Origin: Mycobacteriales bacterium
GTDB taxonomy: Bacteria; Actinomycetota; Actinomycetes; Mycobacteriales; Nakamurellaceae
Assembly (NCBI GenBank): GCA_038229825.1
Contig: JBBROB010000013.1
Location: 84,065-148,064, forward strand
Direction of reading: 5' to 3'
Length of the DNA stretch: 64,000 bases
Positions 53,135 to 64,000 of this stretch are shown here, in pieces (position 1 is the stretch's first letter; the number at the start of each line of letters is the position of its first letter). Under the pieces are notes generated by a model, which did not search any database, had not been told where the DNA came from, and saw only the letters and a list, made by a program, of their open reading frames with translations. Both the position numbers and the translations under genes were made by a program.

Positions 53135-53359
53135 TCACATCGAAGGCGGCCCGCCTCCGGGTTGATTCGTCACTTCGATGAAGATGACGCTCGCGCATCG
53201 GCCATTGATCAGCAGAACGCTGCCGCTGTCGTCGTCGTCGATGACTACGGTGCGGCCGAGGTCCACCGCCTCCTTCAACTGAGATGTCAGGACACCGAGA
53301 TCCGTTCCGAACGGGACGGGGTAGGAAGCCCCGTCAACTGAGATGCTGATATGTTTCAT
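53135..53359 (-). CDS. Small hypothetical protein (74 aa) translationally coupled to the LAL regulator
   Basis: ATGA overlap (53356-53359) with the regulator stop. 'MKHISISVDGASYPVPFGTDLGVLTSQLKEAV...VVIDDDDSGSVLLINGR'. No family recognised. Confidence 0.45.
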   Translation of the reverse strand: MKHISISVDGASYPVPFGTDLGVLTSQLKEAVDLGRTVVIDDDDSGSVLLINGRCASVIFIEVTNQPGGGPPSM

Positions 53360-56295
53360 GACTGATCTGCCCTTCGCCTGGCGGAATTCCGGTTATCGAT
53401 CTGATGAGCTGACGCATCCAGTTTATGGGCGAGGGCGGCTGCCTGGCCCCGATTATCAACACCCATCTTCGCCAGGATGTTGCTGACATGCACGCTCGCG
53501 GTCTTTTCGGTGATGAAGAGTGTTCTGGCGATCTGCCGGTTGCTCGTCCCTGATTTGAGTAGCCCGAGGACCTCACGTTCTCGGGTGGTCAAACCCATCC
53601 TCTGGGCCGCCGACATCGGCGTCGGCGCGGTGGCCGAAATGGCGACACCGGCCATCTCGGCGAGCTGCTCGATTCGCGCCAGCAGGGGTCGCGCCCCAAG
53701 TTCGTCGGCCTGCCGAGCGGCATCGCGAATAGTGTCATCCAGTCCTGCTTCGCGGCCTGAGAGTTGCGCTTCGGCGAGCCGAAAAAGTGCATAGGCACCG
53801 AGGTAGGGGCGATTCGCAGCTTGGGTCGACGTCGCAGCGGATCGCCATGCCTGTCCATCTGTCCCATCCGATGAACGGGCCAATTCGGCGTCGCAGAGCG
53901 CAATCATCGGTTGGCAGGAGCGCTTGTTCCGGAACGGTTCGACGCAGTCGACAATTTGCAACGCGATGCGGCGCAACTGTTCCCCGTCGATCCCTTCCAG
54001 CAGGCGTAGTTCCTCGCCGGAATCGATGAGTGCACGCAGCGCCAGAGCCGAGAGTCGCGAGAAGGCCTGGCCCCCATCGGTGGAAGGGAATCCGTCCAGT
54101 GCGGCAATAGCCACTTCGAAGGCCTGCCGTGGCTGGCCGTCCCAGAACAGGGCTTCGACCCGACAGATGGTGAAAAGGCCGGTGGCCCAGTACTCGTTCA
54201 ACGACGCCACCCTTGGCGCGTGATCATCCAGGAAGGTCGCCCCACGAACGGCGCCGGTCGAGATGTCAAGATCGGCCCTGATGAGGTCGAGGTAGAGCTG
54301 ATGTCCCCCGGGTGCGACCCTGTCGGCGCCGTCCAGCAGCAACTCCCTCGCTTCCGTCCACCGGCCCAGGGTCAGCAAGGTGGCCGCTGCGTTGCACTTG
54401 AGGATGGCACCGGCGCTGTGCGCCAAGCCATATCGCCGGGTGAACGACAGCCCCTCCATCGCGACGTCGACCGATTCCTGCAGTCGGTCGGCGAGATCCA
54501 GGACGTAGGCCAGGTTGTTGTACGCGCGGCACACATCCTCCAGTGCGCCGGCCTCTCTGGCCTTCGAGAGCGATTCCCTCAGGAACGTGATGCCGCGGTC
54601 TACTTCACCGGTGCTCGCCAGGCTGGTGCCCAGAGTGTTCAACGCGTAACTCAACTCGGGTACCGATCCGACCGTTCTGGCCATGGCGACCGCCCTGCCG
54701 GCGACCGCGATCGAGGTGTCGTGATCACCGCGCAGCATCGAGATCGCTGCCAGCGCAGACAAGGCTCTCGCATGTTCCTTCGACGGGCCGCAGTCGGCGA
54801 GCACCTCACAGCTGCGTCGGGCGGCCAGCAGGGAGGACGGCCCTGACCCGCGCTCCCAGTGGTATCTGGCGAGCCTTTCCCACGCGCGGCTTTCGATCAG
54901 TCCGGCCCCGGTGACCGGAAGGTGGTTCAATGCGGCAGAACTCAGCTCGATGGCCCGATCGAGCTGATCGATCCAGCGCAGCGACTCCGCGAACTCCAAA
55001 TGCAATTCGGCCAGGGCGGCGCCCGAGGCTGACTCCGGACTGCTCACATTCGACAGTTCGACCGCCTTCTCGTACAGTGCGGCCGCATCGGCATAGGCCA
55101 GCCGTCCGGCGGCGGCCCGCGCGGCCACCACGATGGGGCCAAACGCCCGCGCCGGTTGTCCGGCCAACAGCCAATGCCGCGCGACAGCGCCGGCGCAGTC
55201 GCTGGTCAATTCCCGGCCGGGGATCAGCAACGCCTCGGCCAGTGCGCGATGAAGCTCCTGACGTTCGGCCGGGAGCAGTTCGTCGTCGATCACCTCAGCG
55301 AAAAGTGCGTGGCGGAACCTCAGCGAGGTCTGCGAGCGATCTGCAACGAGCAGGCCCGTACGGACGGCAAGGCGGGTAGCCTCGCCGAGTTCGACCGGCG
55401 CGGCCTGACACGCTCGCTCCAGCACGGGGACCGGCAACTCCTGACCGCCGGCAGCGACCAATTGCAGCATTCTTCGGGCCACCACCGGTAGCGGCGCAAC
55501 GCGGGCAGCAACATGATCTCGGAGCGTCTCCGGCAGGGTTCCCTCTGTGCTGCTGAGCACTTCAGCCAGGAACGGATTTCCGCCGGACCGAGCGACAACT
55601 TCCGCCCGCCGTCGGAGGCTGACCTCCGGCATCAGCTGCGCGACCAGATCGGTCGTGTCTTTCTCGTCGAGGGCGGCCAGGTCCAGGCGAAGCACGTTCG
55701 ACTGGAGCCCGGCCATGGCCAGCACGGGCCGCAGCGGATGAGCGAAATGCAATTCGTCGGATCGAAAGGTCGCGATGATCTGCAGGCGCTGACCGTAGGC
55801 GTTTCGGACCAGGAACGCCAGTGCGTCCAGGGTCGCCATGTCCGACCAGTGCAGGTCCTCGAGAGCGAGCACAACAGGGCGGTCTTCGGCCAGTTCGGTG
55901 AGCAGGTTCAGCAACAGCTCGAACAGCCTGGTCTGGGCCGTAGCGGCGTTGTCGTCGGTGGAACCCAGCAGCGGCAGCAAGGGTGCGAGGGCGCTGCGCC
56001 GGGCCGGGTCGAGCCAGTTCACAATGTCCGGATCGTGGTGGATGGTGCGGAGGGCCCCCGCTATCGGACCGTAGGGCAGCGCCCCGTGGTTCAGCGGCTG
56101 GCAACTTCCCAGCAGAACGCGCACGCCACACCGAGTTGCCTGTCCCAGGTGTTCGACGAGGATTCGCGTCTTACCGACCCCGGCCTCACCCGAGACGAAC
56201 GCCGTCTGGGTGACACCGTCGGTTGCGGCCGCGAGAGACTCCAACAGGCTCGCGAGTTGGGCGTCCCGCCCTACCACTCGCGCTCGAGGCGACAT
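53356..56295 (-). CDS. LAL-type regulator (N-terminal AAA/P-loop ATPase, TPR-like middle, C-terminal LuxR HTH)
   Basis: 979 aa. Walker A 'VSGEAGVGKTRIL' and Walker B-like 'VVLALEDLHWSD'. C-terminal 'LTTREREVLGLLKSGTSNRQIARTLFITEKTASVHVSNILAKMG'. Divergent from lanL. Confidence 0.85.
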   Translation of the reverse strand: MSPRARVVGRDAQLASLLESLAAATDGVTQTAFVSGEAGVGKTRILVEHLGQATRCGVRVLLGSCQPLNHGALPYGPIAGALRTIHHDPDIVNWLDPARRSALAPLLPLLGSTDDNAATAQTRLFELLLNLLTELAEDRPVVLALEDLHWSDMATLDALAFLVRNAYGQRLQIIATFRSDELHFAHPLRPVLAMAGLQSNVLRLDLAALDEKDTTDLVAQLMPEVSLRRRAEVVARSGGNPFLAEVLSSTEGTLPETLRDHVAARVAPLPVVARRMLQLVAAGGQELPVPVLERACQAAPVELGEATRLAVRTGLLVADRSQTSLRFRHALFAEVIDDELLPAERQELHRALAEALLIPGRELTSDCAGAVARHWLLAGQPARAFGPIVVAARAAAGRLAYADAAALYEKAVELSNVSSPESASGAALAELHLEFAESLRWIDQLDRAIELSSAALNHLPVTGAGLIESRAWERLARYHWERGSGPSSLLAARRSCEVLADCGPSKEHARALSALAAISMLRGDHDTSIAVAGRAVAMARTVGSVPELSYALNTLGTSLASTGEVDRGITFLRESLSKAREAGALEDVCRAYNNLAYVLDLADRLQESVDVAMEGLSFTRRYGLAHSAGAILKCNAAATLLTLGRWTEARELLLDGADRVAPGGHQLYLDLIRADLDISTGAVRGATFLDDHAPRVASLNEYWATGLFTICRVEALFWDGQPRQAFEVAIAALDGFPSTDGGQAFSRLSALALRALIDSGEELRLLEGIDGEQLRRIALQIVDCVEPFRNKRSCQPMIALCDAELARSSDGTDGQAWRSAATSTQAANRPYLGAYALFRLAEAQLSGREAGLDDTIRDAARQADELGARPLLARIEQLAEMAGVAISATAPTPMSAAQRMGLTTREREVLGLLKSGTSNRQIARTLFITEKTASVHVSNILAKMGVDNRGQAAALAHKLDASAHQIDNRNSARRRADQS

Positions 56296-56491: not shown

Positions 56492-59215
56492 ATGACCCAG
56501 CAGGCGGTTCTCGGACGGCGGGCGGCTAGTTCGACCGACAACTCTCTGGAGCAAGCAAGTCTGGGTGAGGTCCTGGCCGGTTTGATCGCCGACGCGCCGA
56601 ACCCTGCCCTGTGGTCCTTCCGCCTCGACGGTGTGTGGGCGTATGCGCATACGGCAAAGCCGCTCCCGATTCAGGGATGGAAATTGCATGTCTCAGCGAC
56701 CGTCGGTTCCGCCGAGAGCGTGTTGAGGGCCTGCGCCGGTGTGCTGCTGGCGGCCGGATGCAACTTCAAGGTGGCCAGCACGTCCGAGCACGTACAGGGC
56801 CTGACAGATTCGCATTGCCCGGCGGAGAGTGCCGGAAAGGTATTGACCGCCTATCCGGGTGACGATGATTCGGCCGTCACCCTGGCCCAGCGGCTCGACG
56901 TGGCAACGAGAGGGTTTGACGGGCCGCGGATTCTCTCCGATCGGCCGTTCGTCCCCGGAAGTCTTGTCCACTACCGCTTCGGTGCATTCACCGGAATACC
57001 GCACGTCTCCCATGATGGCGACGTCACCGCCGCCCTGATGGCTCCGGACGGCACCCCCGTGGCCGACAGCCGCGAGGTCGGCCGTCCGGCACCGGAATGG
57101 GCCAGCCGACCGTTCGTCGTTGCTCCGGCCGGCGATGAAAAGGCGGCCGGACCGCGCCCAGTGATGCTGGCCGATCGTTATGTGGTGCAGGAGGCAATCC
57201 GTCATGCCTACCGCGGCGGCGTCTTTCGTGCCGTCGACCAGAAGTCGGGCCTGACGGTGGTGGTCAAGCAGGCCAGGGCGAACGTCGGCGCAGGTCGCGA
57301 CGGCCTGGATGTGCGCGATCGCCTCCGACACGAGGCCGCGGTGCTCCAGGCGCTGGCCGGACGCGGTTGGGTACCGGAATTGGTGGACACCTTCGAGCAG
57401 GACGGTGACGTGTTCGTGATCGAACAATTCATCCCCGGTCTCAACCTCCGCCAGTGGGTGAATGCCGGTGTGCGCGACGGAATTGTCCTGCGGCCGGTTG
57501 GGGAGGCCCTTCAGGTGCTGGCCAGGGCCGCGACGGTACTGGTCGACCTTCACGCGGCGGGCGTGGTGGTCCGCGACTTCAGCCCCAATAACGTCGTCGT
57601 CGGCGATAGCGGTCAGGTGGTACTGGTCGACCTGGAACTTGCCGATGTACCTGGGATCCCGGTGGGCATCGCACCAGGGGGCACCAGAGCCTACGGGTCG
57701 CCGGAGCAATTCGCAGGCAGCTCTCCACATCGCAGCACCGACGCCTACGCACTCGGCGCGGTCATCGCCTTCACCCTGACGGGTGAGGATCCGCTGCTCT
57801 GGCTCGACACCGTTCCCGACATGCGGAGCTGGCTGGCTCATGGGGTCCGGCAAGCCAGCTGCCCGCCCGACGTCGCGGACCTGGTCGTCGCCTTGTGCTC
57901 GGTGGATCCTGCCGCCCGGCCGACGGCTGCGGCGGCGGCCGATATGTTGCGCACCGCAAAGGCTTCTGCCCCTTCGTTGACGGTCCCGCTGGTCGCCCGG
58001 GCGGCCCTGCAGGACATCCGGCCGATGTCCGAGGCCGAGTTGGACGCAGCCATCGCTGCGCTTCTGGACCGACTGCTTGCCGACGTACACCCGGGGCGAC
58101 AGCGAGTCGCTCGGTCGTCCGGTTTCGGTGAGTCAACGTTGGCGACCAACGTCCAGCATGGTGCGGCCGGGATTCTCGGTGCCATGGTGTCAACGTTCGA
58201 CGCGCTGCACGACGATCGACTGCTCGAGAAGATCCATGACGTTGCGAGGTGGCTGGAACTCGCCGTCGAACGCCATCCCGCGACGGGTCCGGTGGGGTTG
58301 TATTTCGGGTATTCAGGTCCACTCTGGGCCCTGGCCGACGCCGGCGTTGCGCTCGGCGACCCAGCCATGGTCACCAGCGCCTGCGAGCGGGCATTGGCAC
58401 TGCCGACCAGTTGGCCGTCGCCGGATGTCACCCACGGAGTCGCGGGGCTCGGACTGACACTGGTCCATCTGTGGCAGCTCACTGGCGATCGGCGACTGCG
58501 GGACAGGGTGCTCCAGGCTGGGGGGCATCTGCTTGACTGCGCCGAACTGGACGTCGGTGCCGGTCCCGCCGGACCGAGCATCTCCTGGCGGACGCCGCGC
58601 GGGGTTGCCTCGACATTCGCCGGCGGCCGCTTCAATGGATTCGCGCACGGCACGGCGGGTATCGGATTGTTCCTCGAGCACGCTGCCCTGGTGACAAAGG
58701 CAATCGAGTTCGCCGACGCAGCAACACTTGCAGCACAGACACTCGCAAGGGCTGCGGTGCGGCGCGACGGCATGGCGACCTGGGGCTCAAGCCCAGAAAG
58801 GCCGGATCCCGGCCTGACGTACTGGTGCAACGGCTCGTCCGGGGTGGCCACCTTCCTGTCCCGCCATGCCGCGGCCACCGGCGATCAAGACCAACAGCTG
58901 CTCGGAGAAGCGGCACTGTCCCTGGTCAGAAACAAGTGGAAATCCGGGATTTCCTACTGCCATGGGCTTTCCGGCGATGCCGACCTGCTCCTGGATCTGG
59001 CTGAGACCACCTCGGAGCGATACCGGGACTGGGCCGGTGACCTGTTGCGCTGCATGTGGGCCCGCCGGGTGACGGACACGCTCGGACCGGCCCTGTCCGA
59101 CGAGCCCGGCCAAGTCGTGCCGGATTTCAATGTCGGCTACGGTGGCCCGCTCACGGTGCTGCTGCGTTTACGGCACGGTGGCGCCCGGTCCTGGCTCCCG
59201 GCGCTGCGGCCATGA
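56492..59215 (+). CDS. lanL: Class IV lanthionine synthetase (LanL-type): N-terminal phosphoSer/Thr lyase, central Ser/Thr kinase, C-terminal Zn-type LanC cyclase
   Basis: GAGGAG lies upstream of the ATG. Lyase-domain hallmark 'IQGWKLHVSA'. Kinase motifs 'VVKQARANVG', 'VVRDFSPNNVVV' and 'LVDLELA'. LanC motifs 'HGVAGLG', 'HGTAGIG', 'YWCNGSSG' (Cys codon 58826-58828) and 'SYCHGLSG' (Cys-His codons 58958-58963). Confidence 0.85.
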   Translation: MTQQAVLGRRAASSTDNSLEQASLGEVLAGLIADAPNPALWSFRLDGVWAYAHTAKPLPIQGWKLHVSATVGSAESVLRACAGVLLAAGCNFKVASTSEHVQGLTDSHCPAESAGKVLTAYPGDDDSAVTLAQRLDVATRGFDGPRILSDRPFVPGSLVHYRFGAFTGIPHVSHDGDVTAALMAPDGTPVADSREVGRPAPEWASRPFVVAPAGDEKAAGPRPVMLADRYVVQEAIRHAYRGGVFRAVDQKSGLTVVVKQARANVGAGRDGLDVRDRLRHEAAVLQALAGRGWVPELVDTFEQDGDVFVIEQFIPGLNLRQWVNAGVRDGIVLRPVGEALQVLARAATVLVDLHAAGVVVRDFSPNNVVVGDSGQVVLVDLELADVPGIPVGIAPGGTRAYGSPEQFAGSSPHRSTDAYALGAVIAFTLTGEDPLLWLDTVPDMRSWLAHGVRQASCPPDVADLVVALCSVDPAARPTAAAAADMLRTAKASAPSLTVPLVARAALQDIRPMSEAELDAAIAALLDRLLADVHPGRQRVARSSGFGESTLATNVQHGAAGILGAMVSTFDALHDDRLLEKIHDVARWLELAVERHPATGPVGLYFGYSGPLWALADAGVALGDPAMVTSACERALALPTSWPSPDVTHGVAGLGLTLVHLWQLTGDRRLRDRVLQAGGHLLDCAELDVGAGPAGPSISWRTPRGVASTFAGGRFNGFAHGTAGIGLFLEHAALVTKAIEFADAATLAAQTLARAAVRRDGMATWGSSPERPDPGLTYWCNGSSGVATFLSRHAAATGDQDQQLLGEAALSLVRNKWKSGISYCHGLSGDADLLLDLAETTSERYRDWAGDLLRCMWARRVTDTLGPALSDEPGQVVPDFNVGYGGPLTVLLRLRHGGARSWLPALRP

Positions 59216-61041
59216 CCACGACGATGATCGAGGCGGCCGGGCCGGCCACCGATTGCGCGGCGGCAGCCCCGGCCAGGGTGTCCTGGCGATTCTCGCCCGG
59301 CGGTGCGGTCGCCGCCTGCACGGTGGTGCGCCCCGGCCGGCCACCGGAGCTGGAGATCCGGACCGGGACGAGTCGGCGGAGATTGACCATTCAGGATCTT
59401 TCGGTCTACAGCCAGCTCCTGCCGACCGACGATGGTGCGGTGTTCATCGCTCACCAGATCGGCGGGTTGAGCCACATCCTGCTGGTGCGCGCGGACGGAG
59501 CGGTGTCGACGACGACCCATCGCAGCGCAGGTGGGTTGGCGCTCGTGGCCCGACCTGGAGGTACCGGGGTGGTCGCTGTCGAATCCACCCTCGCCGGCGC
59601 GAGCCGACTGCTGGAGTACCGCAACAGCCGGTTCTGCGAATTGGTGTCGTTCGACGGAATTGCCGTCGGCGCGGTCTGGCTGGACGATGTGGGCCGCCGA
59701 ATGGCGGTCAACATCACCGGCCCCGGGCAGCACTGCTCAGCGATCGACATCGACCTGACAACCGGCGACATCACCCCGATGCTGTCGATCTCGCCGACGA
59801 GCGACGACAGGATCAGCGGCTACCTGCCGCGTGCCAACCTGATCGTGTTGTCCACCAACGCGACCGGTGAAATACGGCTTGGCTACGGTCATCCCGGCGT
59901 CGACCGGGTGGCCTTCCCGGACAGCCTGTCGGCCTGCGGTCCGGTGACCTACCTTGCCGGCTCGTCCGACGGCGCGGTGCTGGCCGTGGCAGTGGACCAG
60001 GGAACGTCCTCCGTTGTTCGCATCGTCGATACCGGCTCTGGCCTGGGGACAGATCTGCCGCTGCCTCCGCTGGTGGTCATTGGCTCAGGACAAATCCGCG
60101 GAACCCGGTTGACGTTGCCGGTCAGCACATCGGATCGGCCGGGCACCTTGTTGCACGTCGACATCCGCTCCGGAGTGCACAGTTTCGAGGATCCGGCGGA
60201 GCCGGGGGCGGTCCGGCCGGCCGTTCGTTGGCTACCCGGCGCGGACGGACCGGTGGAGAGTCTGATTTACGGAGACGTCGAGGCCGCGGCCGTCGCCGTG
60301 GTCGCCCTGCACGGCGGCCCGGTGCAGGCGTGGCGGGCAACCTTCGATCCGCTGCTTGCCGAACTGGTCGCCAACGGGATTGCCGTGGTCGCACCCAATA
60401 TTCGGGGTTCCAGCGGCTACGGACGTGACCATGTCATGGCCATCCGTAACCGGTGGGGCGGACCGGACTGCGACGATGTGCTCGCGATCGGCAGGTGGCT
60501 CATCGCGCGCAGGGGCGGTGCGGCGATGCGCCCGATCGTGCTCGGAACTTCCTACGGCGCGTTCCTGGGAATGCTTGCGGCGCAGCGCGCGCCGGGCGAC
60601 TGGTCGGGATGTGTGGCCCTGTCGACCTTCATCAGTGGCGCGCGGGTCGTCGACGCCGGCGGGGCGGTCGCCGAGTTGGTCCGTCGACTCGGCGGCGTGA
60701 CGTCCCCGGATCTGCGAGATCGACTGGATCGGATATCGGTCCCGGTGCTGCTGGTGCACGGCACCGCCGACCACGTTGTCCCGGTGAGCGAATCAGGCCT
60801 GCTGGCCGCCGGCCTGCGTGCTCATGGTTGCCCGGTGCACCACCTGGAGATCAGCGGGGGCGGTCATGACCTCATCAGCGATCCACAGCGCAGAGTTTGC
60901 ATCGACGCGATCCTCGACTTCTGCAGGGAGGTGAAGAAATTTGACTTCGGACGCGGTCCTGATGAAGGAGAAGGAACCCAAGCGGTGCAATGGCCCGCCC
61001 CGGCAGCCACCAGACCGGCACGCACAAACAACGAGAAATGA
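59212..61041 (+). CDS. S9 (prolyl oligopeptidase family) serine peptidase, likely the leader peptidase
   Basis: ATG 59212 overlaps the lanL stop (ATGA). N-terminal propeller-like region. C-terminal alpha/beta hydrolase with nucleophile 'LGTSYGAFLG', 'LVHGTADHVVP' and 'SGGGHD'. Confidence 0.8.
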   Translation: MTTTMIEAAGPATDCAAAAPARVSWRFSPGGAVAACTVVRPGRPPELEIRTGTSRRRLTIQDLSVYSQLLPTDDGAVFIAHQIGGLSHILLVRADGAVSTTTHRSAGGLALVARPGGTGVVAVESTLAGASRLLEYRNSRFCELVSFDGIAVGAVWLDDVGRRMAVNITGPGQHCSAIDIDLTTGDITPMLSISPTSDDRISGYLPRANLIVLSTNATGEIRLGYGHPGVDRVAFPDSLSACGPVTYLAGSSDGAVLAVAVDQGTSSVVRIVDTGSGLGTDLPLPPLVVIGSGQIRGTRLTLPVSTSDRPGTLLHVDIRSGVHSFEDPAEPGAVRPAVRWLPGADGPVESLIYGDVEAAAVAVVALHGGPVQAWRATFDPLLAELVANGIAVVAPNIRGSSGYGRDHVMAIRNRWGGPDCDDVLAIGRWLIARRGGAAMRPIVLGTSYGAFLGMLAAQRAPGDWSGCVALSTFISGARVVDAGGAVAELVRRLGGVTSPDLRDRLDRISVPVLLVHGTADHVVPVSESGLLAAGLRAHGCPVHHLEISGGGHDLISDPQRRVCIDAILDFCREVKKFDFGRGPDEGEGTQAVQWPAPAATRPARTNNEK

Positions 61042-61056
61042 AAGGAGGATTGAGAA

Positions 61057-61200
61057 ATGAGCATTGATATCGCGGAACTGGACTTGCTGCCAGCGGTGGC
61101 TGCGGCTCCGACCACCGATGATCTGGCCGAATTGGGTCTGATGTGGTGCTGGATCACGTGCTGGCACACGTGCTGGATCACCGATCACATCCAGATCTGA
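61057..61200 (+). CDS. lanA1: Lanthipeptide precursor 1 (47 aa): MSIDIAELDLLPAVAAAPTTDDLAELGLMWCWITCWHTCWITDHIQI
   Basis: Translated by hand. AAAGGAGGA (61041-61049) sits 7 nt upstream of the ATG. It lies directly downstream of the synthetase and protease genes. The leader is shared with the second peptide, and the core has 3 Cys and 3 Thr. It is below the size cut-off of the supplied ORF track. Confidence 0.7.
   Translation: MSIDIAELDLLPAVAAAPTTDDLAELGLMWCWITCWHTCWITDHIQI
61147..61182 (+). repeat. 12-nt in-frame tandem repeat x3 (TGCTGG-ATC/CAC-ACG/ACC) encoding (Cys-Trp-Ile/His-Thr)x3
   Basis: Read directly: tgctggatcacg / tgctggcacacg / tgctggatcacc. Confidence 0.9.
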
Positions 61201-61238: not shown

Positions 61239-61302
61239 CTGTCACGCGCTATATCCGGATCCAAGACGGCTCTCCCCACACCTCGAAAGGGGGTGAATCA
61301 AA

Positions 61303-61446
61303 ATGAGCATCGACATCATGGAACTTGACCTGCTGCCGGAGATCGACCCGATCTCCACTGCCGATCTCGACGAAATGGGTCTACAGGTCTGCCGGCCCAC
61401 TTGTCTGTTCAATTCCTGCTTTTTCACCAAGGACTTCTATTTCTGA
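61303..61446 (+). CDS. lanA2: Lanthipeptide precursor 2 (47 aa): MSIDIMELDLLPEIDPISTADLDEMGLQVCRPTCLFNSCFFTKDFYF
   Basis: Translated by hand. GAAAGGGGG lies about 10 nt upstream of the ATG. The leader 'MSIDI-ELDLLP...DL-E-GL' is conserved with precursor 1, and both are 47 aa. The core has 3 Cys and 3 Ser/Thr. Confidence 0.7.
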   Translation: MSIDIMELDLLPEIDPISTADLDEMGLQVCRPTCLFNSCFFTKDFYF

Positions 61447-61556
61447 CAATCCTGGTGTGCCCTTCGGTCTGAGGCGGTGCCCTGGGTGCGGCGTGGATTC
61501 CCTGCCGCGCCCGGGGCGGCCGACCTCAATTCGACTCCCCGCAAATCTGATGAGGT

Positions 61557-63242
61557 GTGAAGATGAAGGACGCCATGACCAACCCCTGGCGTATTGCTCC
61601 GATCTGGACTTCGGTGGCAGTGTCGGCGGCAGTCGTCGGCACGGCCACGAGTCTGGCCATCCCCGCCCTGGTCGGTCGGACAATCACCGCATTTGCGCAA
61701 GGTCGAGAATCGGCCCAGCTCATCTGGCTGTTGATCGCCGCAGTGGCCGCGACGGTGACGATGGGCGTGCTCGCGGCTGTGGCCGGCGGGTCCGGGAGTG
61801 CGCTCATCACCGCCGGCATCCGCCGCGCACTGAGCCGCTCGATCGTCCGCACCGAAGGTCCCGGCGTCGACGGGGTTCGATTCGGCACATCGGATCTGAT
61901 CACGCGCCTTCTGCTCGACAGCAGCGCATTGTCGAGGGCTGTGCCGATAGCCGTCAGCCTGATTCTCTCCTGCGCCAGCCTGTTGGTCGGCATGGTCATG
62001 CTGCTGCTCATCGACTGGTGGCTACTGGTCGGAGTAGTGGCGGGACTGCTGCTGTTGACAGCGATGTTGCGCCGCTACATCGACGACACCGCCGGTCCGA
62101 TCTCGACCTACCGCGAGAGCCAGGCCGAGATCGGGCAGCGACTTCTCGACGCCCAAAGGGGTTCGGCCAGCATCCGTGCGTACGGGACATGGATGCGCGA
62201 ACTCGCTCGCATCGTCCGGCCGCTGCCCGTCCTGCGGGCGGTCGGATCGCGACTCTGGGCCGCACAAGGGCGAATGGCCTGGCGTTCGTCGATCTTCGTT
62301 CCCTCGATTCAACTCTCGATGGTCGGGCTGGGGTGCGTGTCGATGGCCGCAGGTCGGATCAGCGTCGGCCAACTGGTCACCGCGCTGGCCTACAGCACGG
62401 TGATCCTGGGGGCGTTGGATGGCGTGGAGGCGGCCGCCGGTCTCAATCTGGTCAAGGCCGGACGCAGTCGGATCGTCGAAGTCGTCGGATCCTGGACACC
62501 CGGGCGAGTCACCGGCTCGCCGCCGTCGACCGATGAGCCGTTGGAAGTGGTGCTGGACTCGGTGACGGTGCTGGGTGCCGACGGCGGGCCGATTCTCGAC
62601 GACATCAGCTTGACCATTCCAGCGGGTGCACTGGTCGCTGTCACCGGGCCGGCCGGCTCCGGCCGTTCGACCTTCGCCGGCATGGTGGCCGGCACGATCG
62701 TCCCGGCTTCAGGAAACGTGCTGATCGGCGGCGTCCCGCTGGTGCAGATACCGGCGGCAGCTCGGGCCGGACTGGTCGTCCTCGGCTCGTCCCGACCGGC
62801 GCTGATCGGTGAGACCGTCGCCGGTCTGATCGGACTGGGCCTAGGCCCGCTGACGGCCGACGTCGTGGCACAGAACGCCAGGGACGCGCACATCGCCGAT
62901 GTCATCGATGCCCTGCCGGGCGGTTACCTCGCCCGGCTGGACGAACTGCAACTTTCCGGTGGTGAGTTGCAGCGGCTGGGCATCGCCCAGGCAATGGCCA
63001 GGAACAGCAAGGTGATGGTGCTGGACGACGCCACCTCGAACCTCGACGCGGCCACCGAGCGAGAGGTGGTCGGCGCGCTCCGTGCGGCCGGCCGCGGGTG
63101 CACCTGCATCCTGGTGACCAATCGTCCGGCGGTGGCGCGACTGGCGGATGTGGTCATCCGGCTGGAAGCGGGTCATGTCGTGTCCTCAACAACACTGTCT
63201 TCCTCAACAGCGCCGTCCTCAACAATGGCGAGCATGAGATGA
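61557..63242 (+). CDS. ABC exporter half-transporter (TMD-NBD fusion)
   Basis: N-terminal 6-TM domain. Walker A 'GPAGSGRST', signature 'LSGGELQRLGIA' and Walker B 'VMVLDDATSNLD'. The start is GTG 61557 or ATG 61563. Confidence 0.85.
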   Translation: MKMKDAMTNPWRIAPIWTSVAVSAAVVGTATSLAIPALVGRTITAFAQGRESAQLIWLLIAAVAATVTMGVLAAVAGGSGSALITAGIRRALSRSIVRTEGPGVDGVRFGTSDLITRLLLDSSALSRAVPIAVSLILSCASLLVGMVMLLLIDWWLLVGVVAGLLLLTAMLRRYIDDTAGPISTYRESQAEIGQRLLDAQRGSASIRAYGTWMRELARIVRPLPVLRAVGSRLWAAQGRMAWRSSIFVPSIQLSMVGLGCVSMAAGRISVGQLVTALAYSTVILGALDGVEAAAGLNLVKAGRSRIVEVVGSWTPGRVTGSPPSTDEPLEVVLDSVTVLGADGGPILDDISLTIPAGALVAVTGPAGSGRSTFAGMVAGTIVPASGNVLIGGVPLVQIPAAARAGLVVLGSSRPALIGETVAGLIGLGLGPLTADVVAQNARDAHIADVIDALPGGYLARLDELQLSGGELQRLGIAQAMARNSKVMVLDDATSNLDAATEREVVGALRAAGRGCTCILVTNRPAVARLADVVIRLEAGHVVSSTTLSSSTAPSSTMASMR

Positions 63243-64000
63243 GCCGGGCAACGGGAGCTGGAAAGCTGCCGCGCGCACTGCCGGCGACCGGGTCGGACCT
63301 GCTACGGGATTGCCTGCCCGGCCGGGGCGCCATCCTGCGTCTGTTCGCCTGGGTCGCCGCTGAGTCCGTGCCGGCGCTGCTGTCCGGGCTGTGCCTGGCC
63401 CGGGCGATCGATGCGCTGCAGGACCGCAGACCGGCCGCAGTGGTCGGTGCGCTGGCTGTGATGGCCGGCGCGATCGGTCTCGGCGCCATCGCCACCAGGG
63501 CACTCTATTTCTCTCTGGCGATCGTCGTCGACGACTTTCGCGACACTCTGATGGCTGCTGTCGTGCGTGGTTCGCTGCTTCGGATGACCGACGACGGACG
63601 TCCAGGGCCGAACACGCTGACCCAATTGATCGACCAGGTCGATCAGGTGCGCAACCTGCTGTCGGCTGTGCTGCGCGGTATCCGCTCGACGTTGGCCCCA
63701 CCCGTGGCGGTCTGCCTCGGGCTGTTCGCACTGGACCCCCGACTGGGTTGGGCCGTACTGATCCCGCTCGGTGCAGCCCTGGCCCTGTATGGAGCGCTGC
63801 TGCGCCGCGTCCTTTCCCGGGAGCGAGCAGCGGCGATAGCTGGGGAACGCCTTGGGGTCTGCGCCGGTTCGATCGTCCAGGCGATCGGTGACATTCGTGG
63901 GCTCTCAGCCCAGCAGTGGGCCCAGGACAGGATCGACGATGCCGTCGGATCGGTGGCGGCAGCCGACGCGGCAGCCGCCCGCACGGTCGCAAAGCGGCAC
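63239..64000 (+). CDS. Second ABC exporter half-transporter (TMD part only; 3' end beyond the window)
   Basis: ATG 63239 overlaps the previous stop (ATGA). The frame stays open to the window edge (254 codons). Hand translation 'MSRATGAGKLPRAL...LRLFAWVAAESVPALLSGLCLARAID...' is a hydrophobic type-I exporter TMD. It is not in the ORF track because no stop is reached. Confidence 0.7.
   Translation, partial: MSRATGAGKLPRALPATGSDLLRDCLPGRGAILRLFAWVAAESVPALLSGLCLARAIDALQDRRPAAVVGALAVMAGAIGLGAIATRALYFSLAIVVDDFRDTLMAAVVRGSLLRMTDDGRPGPNTLTQLIDQVDQVRNLLSAVLRGIRSTLAPPVAVCLGLFALDPRLGWAVLIPLGAALALYGALLRRVLSRERAAAIAGERLGVCAGSIVQAIGDIRGLSAQQWAQDRIDDAVGSVAAADAAAARTVAKRH

Follow-up and report, generated by a model that had tools for sequence, protein, structure and literature searches.

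The window analysed here, a stretch of 64,000 nucleotides, contains what its gene content and enzyme class identify as a class IV lanthipeptide operon, predicted to yield two related peptides (A1 and A2) whose cores are strings of short units beginning with cysteine and ending with threonine or serine. The locus belongs, as a divergent representative with three units, to a sizeable family of class IV precursors that come with a dedicated S9 peptidase and mostly as A1/A2 pairs, and the ring pattern of its products has probably not yet been described. We slightly favour a pairing of each cysteine with the threonine or serine of its own unit, which would give every window peptide three abutting, non-overlapping small rings with the cysteine first; the modification, the pairing, the site of leader cleavage and the role of the peptides are inferred from sequence.

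The operon and its two precursors

The genes follow one another in the order LanL, S9 peptidase, A1, A2, ABC, ABC. The first, lanL (56492-59215, + strand), encodes a class IV lanthionine synthetase of 907 residues, assigned with NF038150 and Pfam, in which Pfam recognises a RamC_N lyase, a Ser/Thr kinase (Pkinase) and a zinc-type LANC_like cyclase domain. The protein scored 835 bits against the class IV model NF038150 (cut-off 650) and 393 against the class III model, below the cut-off of 575. The cyclase residues D645 (PDVTHG), H719 (FAHG), C779 (YWCNG) and C823-H824 (YCHG) are kept and match D642, H710, C769, C814 and H815 of SgbL in motif and spacing. These SgbL counterparts have been proven essential, and the zinc ligands Cys, Cys and His of the cyclase domain are what class III enzymes lack. 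Alongside the three-domain synthetase with its zinc ligands and Asp/His pair, the locus has small precursors with a class IV-type leader, in which xDIxxLDLLPE resembles the LQxLPE of listed class IV precursors. This supports the first-pass annotation in its view of the peptides as precursors of lanthipeptides that depend on a LanL enzyme.

A1 is an open reading frame of 47 residues (61057-61200, + strand; translation MSIDIAELDLLPAVAAAPTTDDLAELGLMWCWITCWHTCWITDHIQI), with the exact protein on record as P0001, and a Shine-Dalgarno sequence, AAGGAGG, lies at 61042-61048. A class IV-type leader (MSIDIAELDLLP...LGL) runs into the core CWIT-CWHT-CWIT-DHIQI. Codons 31-42 read TGC TGG ATC ACG / TGC TGG CAC ACG / TGC TGG ATC ACC and place the 36 bases flagged in the first-pass annotation, three 12-nt units each coding for Cys-Trp-x-Thr, exactly at 61147-61182 (+ strand). 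Tandem Repeats Finder (TRF) agrees, with an array at 61146-61181 (period 12, 3.0 copies, 83% matches, score 58) that is among four separate arrays (six rows) with a TRF score of at least 50 in the 64-kb window. The peptide repeat of A1 is far beyond chance. A 14-nt imperfect direct repeat (GAAAGGAGGATTGA / GAAATGAGCATTGA) at 61040-61067, which may be chance, takes in the stop codon of S9 together with the ribosome-binding site and start of A1.

A2, on record as P0144, is likewise an open reading frame of 47 residues (61303-61446, + strand; translation MSIDIMELDLLPEIDPISTADLDEMGLQVCRPTCLFNSCFFTKDFYF), with a Shine-Dalgarno sequence, AAAGGGGGTG, at 61286-61295. Its leader is of the same type as that of A1 and is followed by the core CRPT-CLFNS-CFFT-KDFYF, whose translation confirms the Cys-first arrangement read in this second peptide by the first-pass annotation (C30-x2-T33-C34-x3-S38-C39-x2-T42). 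The 4-5-4 spacing of its units recurs in the third peptide of locus L008 (CAMT-CWLFS-CIRT) and in A2 of locus L014.

The S9-family serine peptidase gene (59212-61041, + strand; 609 residues, Peptidase_S9 match at 1e-20) starts within the end of lanL, the lanL stop codon overlapping its ATG (ATGA), and ends 15 nt before A1; it is syntenic in nine other loci, L004-L007 and L009-L011 among them. The triad motifs GTSYG, HGTAD and GGGH are found in its translation. The synteny, the translational coupling and the precedent of FlaP make this enzyme a candidate leader peptidase. FlaP, a prolyl oligopeptidase of the S9 family encoded in the flavipeptin cluster (class III), cleaves its modified precursor behind Pro(-12). 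The two are likened as S9-family peptidases inside kinase-type lanthipeptide clusters, whereas the FlaP system is class III and the present one class IV, with window residues at -1 that are Trp and Val. In the window family a Pro lies 14 residues ahead of the first cysteine (Cys1) almost without exception, and some members also have Pro at -1; in the leader, Pro12 is invariant and Pro16 at least 90% conserved. Any cleavage site is a guess, because the nearest solved structures to the S9 enzyme are acylaminoacyl peptidases (1e-17) rather than prolyl oligopeptidases and because the residue before Cys1 varies. That residue is Arg or Lys in 26 and Pro in four of the 34 family peptides tabulated below, Trp in A1 (61144-61146), Val in A2 (61387-61389), and Phe and Ala in L014. 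The predominance of Arg, Lys and Pro here would fit a core that starts at Cys1, and if S9 cuts before Cys1 its S1 pocket should co-vary between lineages.

Beyond A2 lie an ABC exporter gene (61557-63242, + strand), a permease-ATPase fusion with ABC_membrane and ABC_tran matches and no peptidase domain, and the gene of a second ABC exporter subunit (63239-64000, + strand; weak ABC_membrane match), which continues past the window end and is found at a matching position in L004-L011. The interval separating A2 from the exporter genes holds a GC-rich stem-loop (61464-61535, + strand; MFE -59.7 kcal/mol, z = -4.1), which has counterparts at the equivalent position in L004 (z = -3.3) and L005 (z = -3.5), and there is no hairpin of note between A1 and A2. 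The element is likely an attenuator or an mRNA-stabilising structure that would set the ratio of precursor to exporter. A scan for promoter and terminator consensus sequences gave nothing over background. On the other side of the operon, the gene of a large LuxR-family regulator (53356-56295, - strand; AAA_16 ATPase, TPR repeats and GerE helix-turn-helix by Pfam) is divergent from lanL and is called in L003 too; its position suggests that it is probably the pathway regulator. A TetR gene lies beyond it, upstream of lanL. Elsewhere in the window, positions 1362-1641 hold two clusters of 15-21-nt C/G-rich tandem repeats (e.g. CTCCCGTCACCGGCCCGCCCG, 2.9 copies, 95% matches), whose likely product is a proline-rich repeat protein and which have no connection with the lanthipeptide locus.

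Relatives and the age of the repeat

A single-sequence search with A1 of 5.8 billion proteins returned only A1 itself and no near relative sharing 5-residue words, and a scan of the genome collection with LanL gave, among the matches listed, only two irrelevant kinase matches. The family is defined by other comparisons. The close clade of LanL (47-55% identity) includes four contigs with the order LanL, S9, A1, A2, ABC, ABC, in which the A1 peptides (e.g. ...QGLARCWVTCWITCWDTCNNTDILH) and the A2 peptides (e.g. ...QGLARCTWTCFITCFGRTCSVTEVAD) have four Cys-first units each. More distant relatives (43-45% identity) retain the operon with one, two or three precursors of three or four units each. 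The order LanL-S9-(1-3 precursors)-ABC-ABC is found in ten further loci with LanL 43-55% identical, and A1 and A2 are kept as genes in at least ten other loci. A profile search with the precursors gave 26 family members, with four units in all but the window pair, and an exhaustive HMM search of 1.84 billion representatives gave 52 clusters at E < 0.001. In nearly all of these 52 representatives a leader of class IV type passes through a G-L-x-x-C junction into three to five C-x2-4-[TS] units. The window cores have three consecutive C-x2-3-[TS] units directly after the leader, an architecture that places them with the tandem Cys-x-x-Thr class IV precursor groups (RODEO IV-3-like).

We tabulated the core architecture of 34 peptides comprising 133 units. 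The unit ends in Thr or Ser in 132 of the 133 (125 Thr, 7 Ser), and this residue is in every case followed directly by another unit's Cys or by the beginning of the tail. The tails contain no Cys, Ser or Thr, and the number of Cys equals that of unit-ending Thr/Ser in 33 of the 34 peptides. Units per peptide vary (three, four or five) and changes in spacer length are confined to one unit. The view put forward in the first-pass annotation that the Cys-first pattern is selected is strengthened by its invariance across the 34 relatives and the 52 cluster representatives; so is the point that the last Thr has no downstream Cys, which holds throughout the family with its Cys-free tails.

Some relatives depart from this layout in other respects. 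In P0176, P0179, P0181, P0188 and P0197 the five Cys-first units run on into a long, hydrophilic C-terminal extension (20-45 residues), in contrast to the short tails of the other precursors. The named LanL relatives at around 40% identity, from Kribbella and Actinophytocola, were set aside as another cluster type linked to radical SAM enzymes: in L012 (Kribbella albertanoniae) and L013 (Actinophytocola xanthii) a radical SAM gene adjoins lanL instead of S9, in L012 together with a methyltransferase. Class IV clusters of the L012/L013 type may carry extra modifications.

A1 and A2 types occur together in the window, in L004-L007, in L014 and on three short contigs, and elsewhere there is one precursor per locus in L009 and L010 and three in L008. 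The close-clade loci with two precursors have equal unit numbers in A1 and A2 (3+3 for the window and for L014, 4+4 for L004-L007), and the three peptides of L008 have mixed numbers (4, 4 and 3). Equal ring numbers might be a requirement of a matched pair, or exchange between the A1 and A2 genes might have produced them.

The first-pass annotation had taken the three 12-nt units as a sign of recent repeat expansion. This did not hold up. Comparing repeat number among orthologous precursors, as it had suggested, gave usually four units against three in the window, which speaks against expansion; the sister locus L014 also has three, and the DNA identity of the units is explained by codons. The summed identity of the A1 units is 30/36, where a simulation from the peptide sequence and local codon usage gave 28.5 +/- 1.5, and the observed value was reached in 33% of simulations (p = 0.33). 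Of the 24 Cys codons 23 are TGC, Thr uses chiefly ACC or ACG, and Trp offers no choice of codon. The similarity of the A1 units at the DNA level hence adds nothing to the peptide repeat, since codon constraints account for it. In L005, a four-unit orthologue, the units are as similar to each other as in window A1. A recent DNA duplication was rejected on the strength of the codon simulation, the sister locus and the unit similarity in L005. The unit structure is instead old, being common to lineages whose LanL is only 43-55% identical.

L014 comes from another sample and is around 77-80% identical in nucleotide sequence. Its peptides have the cores CVFT-CWHT-CWIT-DHIQI (A1) and CRPT-CLFNS-CFIT-KDIYF (A2), and with both at three units the 3+3 state must be older than the split between the window and L014. 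The perfect CW-x-T triple is found in the window only, with no counterpart in L014. When 61159-61200 is set against L014 695-736, unit 3 and the tail of A1 are identical over 30 nt and unit 2 matches at 11 of 12 positions; unit 1 differs at 6 of 12 (CWIT against CVFT), with 80% identity over the whole gene; on this comparison constraint along the A1 core is uneven. For the loss of a fourth unit, a clean 12-nt deletion scores slightly above decay of the unit (Cys codon deleted, Thr to Ile), on sequences too short to tell the two apart. Either scenario removes a Cys together with the Thr three residues further on.

Alternatively, the window peptides might be versions of the four-unit family that have decayed, are processed poorly or have lost their function. 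The window pair does have the lowest score among the family members listed (P0122 to P0001), A1 and A2 are without the common Arg, Lys or Pro before Cys1, and three units are rare (3/34 peptides). We nevertheless consider decay very unlikely, given that L014, around 20% diverged, keeps both three-unit genes intact with 12 of 15 same-residue core codons identical to those of the window, and that the LanL, S9 and ABC genes are intact open reading frames. Three units are also found in other lineages (L008 peptide 3, P0159, P0163, P0177 and P0189).

Proposed pairing of cysteines with threonines and serines

In the mechanism that we propose, LanL would bind the shared leader (xDIxxLDLLP...GL), and its kinase domain would phosphorylate the final Thr or Ser of every Cys-x2-3-Thr/Ser unit. 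The lyase domain would then eliminate the phosphate to give Dhb or Dha, to which the zinc-dependent cyclase would add the Cys thiolates. Under pairing within units the predicted rings are Cys31-Dhb34, Cys35-Dhb38 and Cys39-Dhb42 in A1 and Cys30-Dhb33, Cys34-Dha38 and Cys39-Dhb42 in A2. The S9 peptidase, possibly with aminopeptidases, would cut the leader at or near the residue before Cys1, and the two ABC proteins would export the products.

If every Cys and every conserved Thr is used, at least some Cys must attack downstream residues, as the Cys comes first and the Thr last. There is no conserved Ser or Thr upstream of Cys1, so an all-canonical topology using every residue is impossible. Upstream Ser/Thr (AAAP|TT, EIDP|IST) were considered as canonical donors after an S9 cut and were rejected; these residues are not conserved, and in 7/34 peptides the 14 residues before Cys1 contain no Ser or Thr at all. 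Gain and loss of whole units together with spacer changes inside units favour self-contained rings that join Cys(i) with a dehydro residue at i+3 or i+4.

One rival has rings of the usual polarity that overlap, each formed by a Dhb and the Cys five residues downstream (Dhb34-Cys39 in A1); Thr-first is the commonest polarity of lanthipeptides. Incomplete use of residues also has a class IV parallel in partly cyclised products such as the Streptomyces LanIV peptide of the 2022 FAST-RiPPs screen, with three dehydrations and two rings. In A1 such a product would leave C31 and C35 free, perhaps to form a disulfide, with unreacted Dhb 38 and 42 as possible electrophiles. The three-unit peptide, however, allows only one such ring, which would waste two Cys and two Thr per peptide even though these residues are invariant and in a 1:1 ratio across the 34 peptides. 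Units are moreover lost as Cys-plus-Thr pairs, with 3:3 or 4:4 kept. We judge this topology distinctly unlikely.

Pairing within units leaves one feature with no obvious reason, the strict adjacency of Thr and Cys between units. This adjacency, absolute in the 133 units, is directly explained by a nested or globular topology in which all residues are used across units, either as tiny T34-C35 and T38-C39 rings closed by a Cys31-Dhb42 macrocycle or as a hairpin ladder like that of venezuelin or cinnamycin. Mersacidin, which has a ring between residues 1 and 2, counts in favour of the tiny rings. The rings of venezuelin overlap and make the peptide globular; a ring between the neighbours Dhb31 and Cys32 was considered for it and then rejected by the data. 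Changes in unit number and spacer length would also repeatedly shift the size of the macrocycle (11 to 19 residues), and modular rings would seem to tolerate them better. Sequence conservation fits pairing within units and other all-residue pairings alike; we rate the nested arrangement as rather unlikely.

A different chemistry, namely a His-to-butyrine, labionin or AviCys cross-link or dehydration without cyclisation, appears highly improbable. A His-butyrine link has reportedly been published, and the cyclase domains of LanKC/LanL-type enzymes are said to be able to form unusual links. A1 contains His (H37, H44), as do the C-termini of many A1 relatives. Against this, His is not conserved, with tails that end in R, E, K, D or Y, and the 1:1 ratio of Cys to Thr leaves no spare Dhb for it. 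The zinc ligands and acid/base pair of a thioether cyclase are intact in LanL, and the labionin motif Sx2Sx2-5C is absent. We found no decarboxylase, radical SAM enzyme, P450 or YcaO in the conserved gene set, and no further cross-linking or tailoring enzyme near A1 and A2.

Pairing within units thus remains the reading that we slightly prefer. We put forward more tentatively the fuller proposal of a new scaffold, a rigid string of three to five abutting four-residue MeLan rings with Cys N-terminal, produced as a matched A1/A2 pair of equal ring number by one LanL with a dedicated S9 peptidase. A matched pair of ring strings, if true, would be the first two-peptide class IV system.

Comparison with known lanthipeptides

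Class IV is the least explored lanthipeptide class; for the time up to 2020, the literature searched describes only some four products that have been characterised and, in essence, two patterns of rings. The present work defines a coherent subfamily within it, with 52 cluster representatives, an operon of six conserved genes that includes a dedicated protease, and a core design that would force Cys-first rings, probably a new modular ring scaffold. Its unit structure would suit the study of partner choice by the LanL cyclase and the engineering of peptides with a chosen ring number, and the family is a worthwhile target for chemistry and experiment. We found no documented example of a Cys(i)-to-Dhb(i+3) ring of Cys-first polarity in the literature searched, where the window subfamily, with its LDLLPET leader and paired A1 and A2 types, was also absent from the open part, core strings included.

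Rings of the proposed size are familiar in the opposite sense. In nisin, rings B, D and E span i to i+3 and the A/B junction has no spacer; the Dhb comes first and the Cys second, the rings are made by the class I enzymes LanB and LanC, and there are no repeated units. The proposed window rings would match nisin B, D and E in size with the polarity reversed. The class II peptides cinnamycin and the duramycins resemble the proposed products in having (Me)Lan rings with Cys before the dehydro residue, and differ in being made by LanM, with globular overlapping rings, lysinoalanine, hydroxy-Asp and no repeated units.

Among class IV peptides, SflA (made with SflL) has two non-overlapping MeLan rings only, against the three proposed for each window peptide; its leader is removed by M1-family AplP-like peptidases encoded elsewhere.

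The 2022 FAST-RiPPs screen lists three class IV precursors with CxxT repeats: LanIV-3 (...AGCTRTCTWTCSITSIEQQ), LanIV-5 (...GCQYTCLILTCLLFTVS) and LanIV-S3 from Hyalangium (...DCSWTCLWTCSWTS). The LanIV groups of this screen are those of a 2020 census. The three share with the window peptides a Cys-x-x-Thr tandem core and a class IV-type leader, and our profile search also matches the LanIV-3-like P0163 (…CTWTCTWTCSITSF…). They were chosen for expression in the expectation of a new ring pattern, and two of the seven class IV clusters in the screen gave modified peptide in E. coli, with none detected for LanIV-3, LanIV-5 or LanIV-S3, where the authors suspected proteolysis. These were refactored as precursor plus LanL only, with no S9 peptidase or second precursor listed. 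The Cys-x-x-Thr tandem design is thus known as a bioinformatic category within class IV, its ring structure being unsolved in the literature searched.

Venezuelin, made by VenL of Streptomyces venezuelae, is the first class IV peptide, with streptocollin and globisporin as relatives. Its rings are Cys34-Dhb39, Cys45-Dha49, Cys32-Dhb43 and Dhb31-Cys50, and its authors liken the topology to that of cinnamycin and the duramycins. The two systems share a lyase-kinase-zinc cyclase enzyme and a similar leader (LQxLPE there, LDLLPE here). In contrast to the tandem units of the window, the venezuelin core is non-repetitive and forms four overlapping rings in a globular peptide, and its residue pattern (T31, C32, C34, T39, T43, C45, S49, C50) is not found in the window cores. 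Venezuelin-type clusters have a single precursor and no dedicated protease, whereas the window has two precursors and an S9 peptidase. The polarity itself, which the first-pass annotation had called non-canonical, is uncommon among lanthipeptides as a whole yet not within class IV, as three of the four venezuelin rings have Cys N-terminal. By analogy these rings, with spans of i+4, i+5 and i+11 beside a Thr-first ring of i+19, would be the precedent for the polarity that we propose, and the window peptides make no break with known lanthipeptide rules.
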